Of a DNA stretch of 64,000 bases, positions 49,995-52,104 are shown piece after piece. Numbering within the stretch: position 1 is the stretch's first letter; each line of letters starts with the position of its first letter. The position numbers and the translations under genes were made by a program. Origin of the DNA: Escherichia phage AidaStucki_Bas93; the sequence record PQ850593.1; one strand, 5' to 3'. The notes under the pieces are model-generated. The model saw only the letters and a list, made by a program, of their open reading frames with translations, was not told the origin of the DNA and did no database searches.

Positions 49995-52025
49995 TTAACC
50001 TCTATTCAATGAACATTTAGGAGAATTACAATAAACTTGATTCATAGAACCAAGCGTACAACTTTCAGCATCGCGCCACGGAATCTGCTTAAAACACCCT
50101 GAGCAGTAGCCGAGGGTTGACCACATTGCTTTGGTGAAGTCAGTGCTTCGATTTCCGTCGAAGCTGACAACAGTTTTGCGGAGAGCTGTTCGTGATTCAG
50201 GAAACACACCTGCTTTCTCAGCAGGTTCCTCCTTTTTTGGCTTAGTTGAGATTGCAAAAATACTGTTGCTACGTTTCTCAACATAAGCATCAACAACATC
50301 CTCCAGAGTAATGCCTGTCTGTTTCGCTGAGGAAGGTAATACAGTCATACGACCAATCATATCTTCAGTTACACGTAAAGCAAATTCAGGACGACGGGCG
50401 TTTGTTGTATCTGTTGCTTTAATCCAGACATAACCATCTTTGATCGTAGCATTAGATACTTTCTTCTTTATATCTACAGCGCAGACTTTACAGATGTCTT
50501 CACCACGAAGACGACTGAGTTCATCATCAAACTCGTTCTCTGTTTTAACTTCACCACAGATTTCACAAACACCAATAGGAGTTTCCTCCTCTTCTTCATC
50601 TTTAGGCTTAGTCAAACCTTCCAGACATTCAGGGTGCCAGTAGCATTGATATGCGAAGACTGCTTTAGGTGCATCCTTCCAATCAATGTGTTTATCACAA
50701 CCGCCACAATCACCATGAGAATGTGCTTCCCAGAATTTACGAGTGATAGTAACGCCATTCTTGTTGACGAAACTATCATTCATATCAAAAGGGATATCAT
50801 CATCAAAGTCAGCAGTAGTTGACTCAGGCTCCTTTTTCTCCAGAGATGGGTCAACAAAACGACCTGCTGTGATCACTAAACGAACCATAGCATTAACTTC
50901 GGAGATACAGGATACTGTCCCACGGTAAACAATTTTAGGGTCTTTCAGGGCATCCTGATAAGCCTTAATGTCTACGTTATGAACATCACCTTCGATATAC
51001 TCTTGAGATTTCTCATCGTAGATATAACCAATCATCTTACCACGAGAAGGAACAGCACCAGCAGTTGCATAAGGGACAAACTCATGTGGTGTGATCTCCA
51101 CAGTCATGTCGCGGCGAATGTCAATGTTTCGATCGCTTGCGATTTTGTTTTGACTTACCACTGCGTTTCTTCGACGAACGTCTGCCGCTGTCACTCCCGG
51201 CTTCGTGTCGTAAGGATTGCTTGTACTGCTTTTTGAGGAACTTTGATAGTTGCTTTGGCTGTAGTTGTTCGAGTAGTAATTGCCCCAACGATTGATTACC
51301 GTAAAAACCGGAAGCTCGTGGGCGACCTCTTCAACTAGAGTCATGCTGTTGTTTGACACATCAAAGATGTATTCTGTACCAACTTTACATTCAAAGTGCT
51401 CATCAATGCGATTCTTGTGAGACCTAGAACGCTTCAGAATCCACATCAACATATCTTCTTCAGAAGCACCAAACCAATCTCTGTTACAACGTGCAAGATG
51501 GAAAGGACGCTCTTCATTACGGATGATATGAAGACGATTATCAGAAGCATCGTGCCAGATTAAGGTGAAAGCACCATCCAGCTTTTGAATAGTCTCTGCT
51601 GCACCAATAGTGTTAATAGAGTGGCAGATGTTTTCACTGTCTACCTCGAAGTTTTTACTGTCAGGTAACAGGTCTTGGTTCATCAAGGTTCCGTTATGAA
51701 CCAGAGTGATGTTACCGTGTTGGAAAGGATGGGCGTTCTTGGCGTTAACTGCACCTTTCGTTGCATGACGGCTGTGACCAACAATCCATGAAGGTGCTAC
51801 AGTGTAAGCTGTTTCACCAGTGGTGTGCTTCTTGTACTCATCTTTAAGGATGAATGCGAAAGAAGGAAGTGCCTCTTTATAAGTGAAGACCTCTTTAGTG
51901 CTTTTACGCTGACCAAAGATACCAGAGGAGTGCTGTCCTCGGAATACTCCAGCATAAAAGAGTTGGTTAAATATATCTAAATCAGTGCTTGACAGATTAC
52001 CGCCAGCTAATACGATGCCACAAAT
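49995..52025 (-). CDS. class II (Ntn) glutamine amidotransferase fused to a Zn-ribbon-repeat C-terminal region; apparent ATT start
   Basis: 676 aa. The reading frame opens 2 codons after a TAG and reads ATT-TGT-GGC-ATC-GTA (M)CGIVLAGG. It also carries RGQHSSGIF and GHSRHATKG...NAHPF...LVHNG. SD-like ggtgga lies 7 nt upstream. The track ORF (49995-51686) misses the catalytic N-terminus. Confidence 0.7.
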   Translation of the reverse strand: MCGIVLAGGNLSSTDLDIFNQLFYAGVFRGQHSSGIFGQRKSTKEVFTYKEALPSFAFILKDEYKKHTTGETAYTVAPSWIVGHSRHATKGAVNAKNAHPFQHGNITLVHNGTLMNQDLLPDSKNFEVDSENICHSINTIGAAETIQKLDGAFTLIWHDASDNRLHIIRNEERPFHLARCNRDWFGASEEDMLMWILKRSRSHKNRIDEHFECKVGTEYIFDVSNNSMTLVEEVAHELPVFTVINRWGNYYSNNYSQSNYQSSSKSSTSNPYDTKPGVTAADVRRRNAVVSQNKIASDRNIDIRRDMTVEITPHEFVPYATAGAVPSRGKMIGYIYDEKSQEYIEGDVHNVDIKAYQDALKDPKIVYRGTVSCISEVNAMVRLVITAGRFVDPSLEKKEPESTTADFDDDIPFDMNDSFVNKNGVTITRKFWEAHSHGDCGGCDKHIDWKDAPKAVFAYQCYWHPECLEGLTKPKDEEEEETPIGVCEICGEVKTENEFDDELSRLRGEDICKVCAVDIKKKVSNATIKDGYVWIKATDTTNARRPEFALRVTEDMIGRMTVLPSSAKQTGITLEDVVDAYVEKRSNSIFAISTKPKKEEPAEKAGVFPESRTALRKTVVSFDGNRSTDFTKAMWSTLGYCSGCFKQIPWRDAESCTLGSMNQVYCNSPKCSLNRG

Positions 52026-52104
52026 TTTCTAATCCACCTGAAGGGTAAACCCTTTCATCTAATTAACCTTTAAATTATGCCCCTTCGTCAGAGGCACCCA
52101 TTGA

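Follow-up and report, generated by a model that had tools for sequence, protein, structure and literature searches.

A probable AUU start codon and its invariant leader in the amidotransferase gene of phiEco32-like phages

The amidotransferase gene and its ATT codon

We analyzed a gene for a protein with a class II, N-terminal nucleophile (Ntn), glutamine amidotransferase domain in Escherichia phage AidaStucki_Bas93 (PQ850593.1). The whole stretch of DNA that was analyzed, 64,000 nucleotides (nt) long, is called the window; coordinates are positions in this window, and features lie on its minus strand unless stated otherwise. At full length, the gene occupies 49995..52025, encodes 676 amino acids (aa) plus a stop codon when read from an ATT, and is the orthologue of phi32_83 in phiEco32 and of gp83 in phage LAMP. 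The region matches Escherichia phages LAMP and ManiMatter_Bas94 at 99.7% identity, and matches phiEco32, NJ01, SU10, Paul and about 60 others at 95-97%; the source group is the Kuravirus-type podophages of the subfamily Gordonclarkvirinae.

Around its start, the reading frame consists of TAG (52031-52029), AAA (52028-52026), ATT (52025-52023), TGT (52022-52020) and then GGC ATC GTA, i.e., *, K, I, C, G, I, V. From the TAG to the Cys codon, the frame contains neither ATG nor GTG nor TTG, and the ATT (52023..52025), which we take as the initiation codon, is the sole near-cognate start in this interval. The next canonical start lies 112 codons after the Cys, and 113 codons past the ATT: it is the TTG at 51686, which gives an open reading frame (ORF) of 49995..51686 and is directly followed by an ATG at 51683 (the two codons together span 51681..51686). 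Upstream of the ATT, with a 7-nt spacer, is a Shine-Dalgarno-like (SD) sequence, GGTGGA (52033..52038), whose predicted duplex with the 3' end of 16S rRNA has an energy of -5.9 kcal/mol, weaker than in other family members with ATT or ATC. A first-pass annotation of this DNA, made from the letters and an ORF list, had given the same frame and the same position for GGTGGA, and both were confirmed by the sequence and its translation. It had also placed the first ATG 113 codons downstream; this is correct to within one codon, but the TTG at 51686 precedes that ATG. Overlooked at that stage was an in-frame ATG at 52058-52056, which opens a 9-codon ORF, MKGFTLQVD, closed by the same TAG.

The TGT (52020..52022) would encode Cys1, the catalytic residue that becomes the N-terminal nucleophile after removal of the initiator Met. 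A profile built from diverse family members has this Cys at position 1 and places it opposite the first residue of the mature chains of GlmS (1xff), E. coli PurF (1ecb) and B. subtilis PurF (1ao0), with E ~1e-14. Other active-site motifs, namely FRGQHSSG, GHSRHATKG, LVHNGTL and EVDSEN, are in register with GlmS and PurF, and Pfam searches found GATase_6 (E=3e-15, 56.7 bits, cutoff 27) and GATase_7 (30 bits, cutoff 25). On the strength of these alignments, the protein carries a class II glutamine amidotransferase domain with Cys as its first mature residue. It resembles other class II (PurF/GlmS/AsnB-type, Ntn) amidotransferases in that Cys1 comes right after the initiator Met and in its RG, GH(x)R(x)AT(x)G, HNG and D(x)E motifs, which can be aligned to those of GlmS and PurF.

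The ATT is highly conserved. A 65-nt query comprising the leader and the first five codons matched 96 phage records, 68 of them identically and 28 with one mismatch, and had no match in E. coli genomes. The ATT is present in all 96 of these genomes of the subfamily, which represent at least three genera, and in several metagenome contigs as well. Every Gordonclarkvirinae sequence that we inspected reads GGTGGATTAGAAA ATT TGY; the 14 different sequences represent the genera Kuravirus, Nieuwekanaalvirus (EP335) and Suseptimavirus (SU7, ECBP2). At the homologous codon, ATG-TGY is found in Proteus phage 3H10_20, Cronobacter phage GAP52, Salmonella phage 7-11, Vibrio phage SJSY21, Aeromonas phage LAh_9, many metagenomic phages and Grimontviridae. 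Because ATT is found in the whole subfamily and ATG in distant relatives, the ATT is a derived state that has become fixed, rather than an error. It had been suggested in the first-pass annotation that relatives be checked for an ATG at this codon. Distant relatives do have one, but as the ancestral state of the homologous codon and not as the correction of an error.

We also considered whether the segment between the ATT and the first canonical start is translated. In codons 2-114, comparison with close relatives reveals 12-18 synonymous and 2-3 non-synonymous changes, and comparison with the ECBP2-like locus L007, at 30% nucleotide divergence, reveals 47 synonymous and 27 non-synonymous codon changes. 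These 113 codons ahead of any canonical start evolve as coding sequence, under purifying selection. The segment contains Cys1 within CGIV, FRGQHSSG, GHSRHATKG and LVHNG, and the TTG/ATG at 51686/51683 comes only after the HNG oxyanion-hole motif, midway through the domain. That CGIV and RGxxSxG (here FRGQHSSG) precede the first canonical start had been noted before and is borne out; GHSRHAT and LVHNG are also upstream of the TTG. In phage SU10, the corresponding protein, gp85, has been detected in infected cells with 9 peptides (PMC4281155).

Translation very probably begins at the AUU with formylmethionine (fMet), and Met removal would then expose Cys1. The earlier proposal that translation starts at the ATT, with the catalytic Cys next, is thereby supported by the status of the ATT as sole start, the coding selection, the alignment of Cys1 and the conservation of the ATT. 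Several considerations weigh against it. In E. coli reporters, AUU initiates at about 1-2% of the level of AUG (bioRxiv 10.1101/063800), and for so weak a codon the predicted strength of the Kuravirus SD, -5.9 kcal/mol, is merely moderate. Two canonical start codons in other frames overlap the ATT and TGT, namely a TTG (52023-52021) that opens an 8-codon ORF (LWHRISWR) and a GTG (52021-52019) that opens a 4-codon ORF; both are reachable from the same SD, and may capture ribosomes or act as decoys. Finally, the SU10 proteomics data were searched only with a truncated gene model for gp85 (PMC4281155).

Assigning the start to this ATT is not new, as the reference annotation has done so since 2008. 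In phiEco32 (EU330206 / NC_010324), the annotated 2031-nt coding sequence (CDS) of phi32_83 begins at this ATT. LAMP gp83 and six BASEL phages likewise annotate the CDS from this ATT, and Bas94 has the same 2031-nt CDS. The phiEco32 (YP_001671828.1) and LAMP (AUM57651.1) proteins, both called 'glutamine amidotransferase', come from the same gene, at 96-99.7% nucleotide identity and with the same CDS. Given these annotations, the start proposed in the first-pass annotation repeats a call made in 2008. What the present analysis adds is a correction of the records, a frozen initiation module with an upstream ORF (uORF), and the recurrence of AUU and AUC starts in a family whose start is locked by Cys1.

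The warning that ORF callers would truncate this gene also proved apt. We listed 60 records, 53 of which are annotated, and in 44 of these 53 (~83%) the true start is not annotated. Starts are placed at codon 114 in Paul and NJ01, codon 27 in YF01, codon 59 in EP335 and codon 11 in SU7, and also later than the ATT in SU10 and ECBP2. Many records' gene model is the 563-aa protein that begins at 51681..51686. (YF01 has an HNH endonuclease insertion, but this is downstream of the gene and is irrelevant to its start.) Product names are inconsistent and partly wrong, e.g., 'L-glutamine-D-fructose-6-phosphate aminotransferase', and 'purF' on a protein with only a glutaminase domain. A Pfam search of the protein found only GATase domains and no SIS (sugar isomerase) domain, so the name 'L-glutamine-D-fructose-6-phosphate aminotransferase' (GlmS) is unsupported; in EP335, this name is attached to the neighboring amidoligase. 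Thus, about four fifths of the sampled annotated genomes carry a truncated, catalytically meaningless gene model, often misnamed 'glucosamine-6-phosphate synthase'. The correct start restores the nucleophilic Cys and half of the active site, which matters for decoding the amidoligase/ATP-grasp/amidotransferase cluster.

Within this cluster, the gene is part of a long early operon, in which an Amidoligase_2 gene and a gene for a phiEco32-type COOH-NH2 ligase precede it. The Amidoligase_2 gene (52105..53208), the immediate upstream neighbor, is read in another frame, and its end is 80 nt upstream of the ATT. The version of the cluster in ECBP2 additionally holds an ATP-grasp enzyme and a gamma-glutamyl cyclotransferase. 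Cell-wall modification has been suggested as a role (Iyer et al. 2009, as cited in PMC10580990). This setting, in a phage cluster with Amidoligase_2, COOH-NH2 ligase and ATP-grasp enzymes, distinguishes the gene from those of other class II amidotransferases. A further difference is that matches in the PDB are limited to the N-terminal 180 residues, and that the C-terminal ~400 aa (49995-51240), an uncharacterized region with Cys clusters and no Pfam match, stand in place of the synthase or acceptor domain of cellular amidotransferases. Several of these CxxC...CxxC clusters resemble zinc ribbons (CGGCDKH, CEICGEV...CKVC, CSGCFKQ...CNSPKC).

The invariant leader and its history

The ATT lies in an island of conservation (52006..52075) that consists of a 58-nt exact match to ECBP2 (52018-52075), one GGC/GGT site, and 11 more invariant nucleotides in codons 4-7. 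Relative to ECBP2-type phages, there are 0 differences in the 53 nt of the leader (P ~5e-9 at the CDS rate), whereas 30% of sites and 58% of third positions differ in the adjacent CDS, and the flanks of the island are 74% and 68% identical. Codons 4-7 are invariant at synonymous sites too. We do not use the length of the exact match alone as proof of constraint, because the 58-nt match ranks only 19th in length genome-wide against ECBP2 (78.6% identity). It stands out given the divergence of its flanks: it is one of two long exact matches that lie in flanks of <=75% identity. The other is a 57-nt exact match at 58902-58958 in the early region (TTGATAGGAGATCTGAAGTCCTATCTCAAAGGACTCTCGTAAGAATCCTTCACGATA, + strand), with flanks that are 74% and 57% identical, and may be another regulatory element.

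Also within the island is the uORF (52029..52058), which reads ATG AAA GGG TTT ACC CTT CAG GTG GAT TAG (MKGFTLQVD*), is in frame with the amidotransferase, has its own AAGG 8 nt before its ATG, and is invariant in the subfamily. Three nucleotides separate its stop codon from the ATT, and the uORF includes the GGTGGA. Just 5' of the SD is a small hairpin, AAGGG-TTTA-CCCTT (52041..52054), which was read from the sequence, is present in the centroid fold, and is absent from relatives with ATG. Between the amidoligase stop codon and the leader, folds are predicted to contain a G+C-rich stem-loop, GCCTCT-GACGA-AGGGGC (52079..52095), in which substitutions across genera keep the pairs, one pair being changed on both sides. 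A hairpin at the same place occurs in 7-11, GAP52, and Proteus and Aeromonas phages, and in some of these it is then followed by a terminator-like T-run.

As a structured RNA element, the leader is suggestive at most. Its predicted folding is unremarkable (single-sequence z = -1.5), and an Rfam search with the leader returned nothing below E = 0.1. RNAalifold predicts a weak outer stem, in which the 5' part of the leader pairs with codons 3-7 and there is one one-sided change, and an inner helix over the SD. Since the leader sequence is invariant, it offers no covariation with which to test the proposed pairing. The predicted probability that the SD and start are unpaired is ~0.4-0.5, similar to that in ATG relatives.

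We also considered the leader as a promoter for the phage sigma factor gp36, and rejected this idea: there is no match to tAATGTATAtA in the leader within 2 mismatches. A degenerate version, TTAAAGGTTAA, is present in the Kuravirus leader but does not pass this test. Elsewhere in the window, exact copies of the gp36 motif (TAATGTATATA) are at 23943-23953 (+) and 33392-33402 (+), and copies with one mismatch are at 6858 (+), 33318 (-) and 42835 (-). These are presumably middle and late promoters, and the total number of matches at <=2 mismatches is not above chance. In loci L009 and L010, Proteus phage 3H10_20 (L059), GAP52 (L060) and 7-11 (L061), a motif like TTAAATGTAAA occurs about 20-30 nt before the ATG, between the hairpin and the SD. 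Because TTAAATGTAAA resembles tAATGTATAtA, the amidotransferase gene of the ATG relatives may have its own phage-sigma promoter.

Comparisons with relatives give some insight into how the leader arose. GAP52 reads TAGATGAAAGGATTTTTAGT ATG TGT and shares the piece TAGATGAAAGG with the Kuravirus leader. Relative to those of ATG-type relatives, ATT-type leaders carry about 16 extra nucleotides, which correspond to the hairpin's 3' arm and a new SD. A further ATT-type leader is found in L148, a scaffold of 624 nt, probably phage DNA, from a Herbiconiux assembly. The N-terminus of its amidotransferase is 60% identical to that in the window and 83% identical to that of L030, which has ATG and lacks the insert. 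Judging from these sequences, ATT-type and ATG-type initiation regions have been interconverted between fairly close relatives.

L148 reads GAAAGGGATTTATCCCTTGGAGAGGATTAGTAA ATT TGC and retains the SD, GAT TAG and ATT. Its hairpin is kept with one extra A-T pair (AAGGGA-TTTA-TCCCTT), and it has CTG in place of the uORF's ATG. In this scaffold, the stretch homologous to the uORF forms the 3' end of a real gene, in the same frame and with an HTH_3 domain (24.4 bits, above the Pfam cutoff), which ends GAT TAG TAA. The GAT-TAG ending is thus kept in Kuravirus, where it closes a mini-ORF, and in L148, where it closes a real gene, so that an ORF terminating at this point is preserved in two genomic contexts. 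From this comparison, the uORF of Kuravirus appears to be a mini-ORF that was retained and through which translation termination at GAT-TAG, just before the AUU, is preserved.

Similar initiation regions are found at some other loci. In L134 (580-610), GGAGGATTAGAAA ATT TGTGG differs from the Kuravirus sequence GGTGGATTAGAAA ATT TGTGG (52018-52038) by one mismatch in 21 nt, and the proteins are 36% identical. This likeness could reflect convergence on an A-rich spacer or an exchange of initiation regions. L085 and L140 carry GGAGATGAGAAA ATT.

Routes to the AUU and alternative explanations

We propose that the AUU (52025-52023) would be read by the initiator tRNA as fMet, and that deformylase and methionine aminopeptidase would expose Cys1, the Ntn nucleophile. 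On the lineage to the phiEco32-like phages (Gordonclarkvirinae), ATT would have taken the place of the ATG in an ancestral ATG-TGY start, and the leader would have been remodeled simultaneously, gaining the hairpin and the new SD. Most likely, the frozen region of 58-70 nt, with the hairpin, SD GGTGGA, uORF and AUU, would act as one unit that sets a low, conditional rate for synthesis of an early enzyme. The benefit would be weak expression that is sensitive to initiation factor 3 (IF3) or cell physiology. The first-pass annotation had suggested low enzyme levels, or a tie to IF3 status, as possible purposes. In vitro, expression from AUU mRNAs is sensitive to IF3, guanosine tetraphosphate (ppGpp) or temperature (PMC5499595).

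The odds are roughly balanced between two routes by which ribosomes might reach the AUU: partly by termination on the uORF followed by SD-aided reinitiation, or by plain SD-directed initiation. The +3-nt spacing from the uORF stop to the AUU is that of the coupled pairs galT/galK and rplK/rplA (PMC12548453), and an SD enhances reinitiation (PMC2268962). As in these pairs and in M13 geneV/VII reinitiation, the upstream stop is close to the start and the SD lies inside the upstream ORF (PMC12548453; PMC2268962). Unlike in those systems, the upstream ORF has 9 codons and the downstream start is AUU, and coupling is something that we infer. Coupling would fit the moderate SD of Kuravirus for such a weak codon, and the fact that in L148 this geometry recurs with a real gene. 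As a candidate for uORF-coupled initiation at AUU, the phiEco32 leader is compact and testable.

Several results weigh against the coupling part of this explanation. Closeness to an upstream stop is found in 8 of 13 family members with ATT or ATC and in 38 of 61 with ATG (Fisher p=1). We had at first regarded this closeness as a comparative signal, based on Kuravirus and L043 (3-4 nt after TAG), but dropped the argument because closeness is equally common in ATG members. In addition, L148 lacks the uORF's ATG, having CTG there, and no occluding structure is predicted at the SD and start, in line with the z score of -1.5 and an accessibility like that of ATG relatives. Finally, the leader never varies, so there is no true covariation.

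The strongest alternative is a variant of our explanation that keeps the ATT start itself. According to this alternative, the ATT is used by plain SD-directed 30S initiation, the uORF and hairpin play no part in translation, being left over from an upstream gene that was lost, and the leader owes its invariance to something else, such as a protein-binding or RNA-processing site. We judge its chances to be somewhat short of even. It would account for the lack of enrichment of upstream-stop closeness among ATT/ATC members, for the missing uORF ATG in L148, and for predicted folding that occludes the SD and start no more than in ATG relatives. However, 53 invariant nucleotides far exceed the needs of an SD and a start codon, the GAT-TAG end of an ORF before the ATT is kept in both Kuravirus and L148, the hairpin has an added pair in L148, and the leader is not a gp36-type promoter.

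It is also conceivable, but very improbable, that translation starts at the uORF's ATG (52058) and reads through the TAG to give MKGFTLQVD-X-KI-CGIV, from which a 12-residue propeptide would be removed autocatalytically. The uORF is in frame with the amidotransferase and has an ATG and an AAGG SD. Moreover, propeptide-processed Ntn amidotransferases exist; the mature 1ao0 and 1gph chains begin at Cys1, and the B. subtilis PurF propeptide has 11 residues. The gene shares with B. subtilis PurF and glutamate synthase, which are propeptide-processed, the need for a free Cys1 and an in-frame leader peptide before the Cys. It differs from them in that an in-frame TAG separates the leader peptide from the Cys, so that readthrough would be required. 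Basal UAG readthrough is possibly of the same order as AUU initiation efficiency, but natural E. coli hosts are not known to be amber suppressors, and neither the 64-kb window nor the remaining part of the Bas94 genome yielded a suppressor tRNA, or indeed any tRNA. (ECBP2 encodes a tRNA-Arg, at L145:27613-27685, which is ECBP2 67613-67685.) The double in-frame stop, TAG TAA, before the ATT in L148 argues against stop-codon readthrough. The 10 other ATT/ATC lineages that were checked lack an in-frame canonical start upstream; furthermore, the homologous ATG in GAP52 is out of frame, and in about 80% of the family Met immediately precedes the Cys.

Slightly less probable still is that the 563-aa protein from the TTG/ATG at 51686/51683 is the real product and is not an amidotransferase. 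Most GenBank records use this start, the SU10 proteomics matched the 63.8 kDa model, and the ~400-aa C-terminal extension with its Cys clusters could function alone. However, the molecular weight in the SU10 study was an input to the analysis and not a measurement of the N-terminus. The synonymous excess and the absence of any stop codon over the 113 codons in all examined genomes, at 30% nucleotide divergence, also contradict this idea, as do the retention of all catalytic motifs and the position of the truncated start, which is past HNG and midway through the domain. The last alternative, that the ATT is an artefact arising from a sequencing error or a strain-specific mutation of an ATG, is ruled out by 96 independently sequenced genomes.

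AUU and AUC starts in the wider family

Since Cys1 dictates where the start codon must be, non-canonical starts, which can escape notice in other genes, are exposed in this family. We surveyed the codon before Cys1 by scanning IMG/VR with a diverse alignment, which yielded 80 loci and 72 distinct sequences. This codon is ATG in 54 of the 72, ATT in 12 (4 of them Kuravirus-type), TTG in 3 and ATC in 2, and 1 begins ATG TGC TGT. When all loci are pooled, the number of distinct N-terminal domains is 88. Of the 79 from outside Gordonclarkvirinae, 10 (~13%) use ATT or ATC and 4 use TTG or GTG, and L148 is one further ATT case beyond these 10. Outside the phiEco32 group, then, ATT and ATC are commoner than GUG and UUG together. 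Between the upstream stop and the Cys, none of the 10 IMG/VR cases with ATT or ATC has an in-frame canonical start.

The ATT/ATC cases are scattered on a neighbor-joining tree, and L114 (ATT) and L116 (TTG) have identical N-termini. Fitch parsimony gives at least 9 start-codon switches, with ATG at the root. Because the tree is rough, we claim only that there were at least five independent origins of ATT/ATC. It is essentially a phage family: we found 312 isolate phage records, versus three tiny contigs in 185,579 species genomes.

These frequencies differ from those in E. coli, in which starts are 83% AUG, 14% GUG and 3% UUG, AUU is confirmed only for infC and pcnB, and AUU, AUC and AUA initiate at ~1-2% of AUG (bioRxiv 10.1101/063800). 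Part of the contrast is a matter of ascertainment, because only a family with a fixed first residue reveals such starts. Like infC and pcnB, the phage gene has a conserved AUU after an SD, and belongs to a weak codon class that IF3 discriminates (bioRxiv 10.1101/063800; PMC2268962; PMC5499595). Unlike them, it is a phage early gene whose start is pinned by Cys1 and preceded by a uORF that ends 3 nt upstream, and the comparison does not imply IF3 dependence or autoregulation. Nonetheless, an early gene of coliphages with an AUU conserved in three genera stands against two confirmed AUU genes in E. coli.

A more far-reaching possibility, which we regard as rather doubtful, is that AUU/AUC initiation has been selected repeatedly in the family, and that the phiEco32 module is a translational control element linking enzyme synthesis to upstream translation and to the initiation state of the host (IF3, ppGpp, temperature). 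If this is true, the Cys1-locked family would be a natural reporter of how often and why phages use near-cognate starts. The family is a clean system in which to ask whether such starts are tolerated drift or a regulatory device.

Predicted SD duplexes are stronger in ATT/ATC members than in ATG members (mean -8.3 versus -6.7 kcal/mol; p=0.009, not corrected for phylogeny). An additional observation concerns the homolog L036 / L102, which begins ATG TGC TGT GGA (Met-Cys-Cys-Gly), and in which the catalytic Cys would be residue 2 after Met removal.

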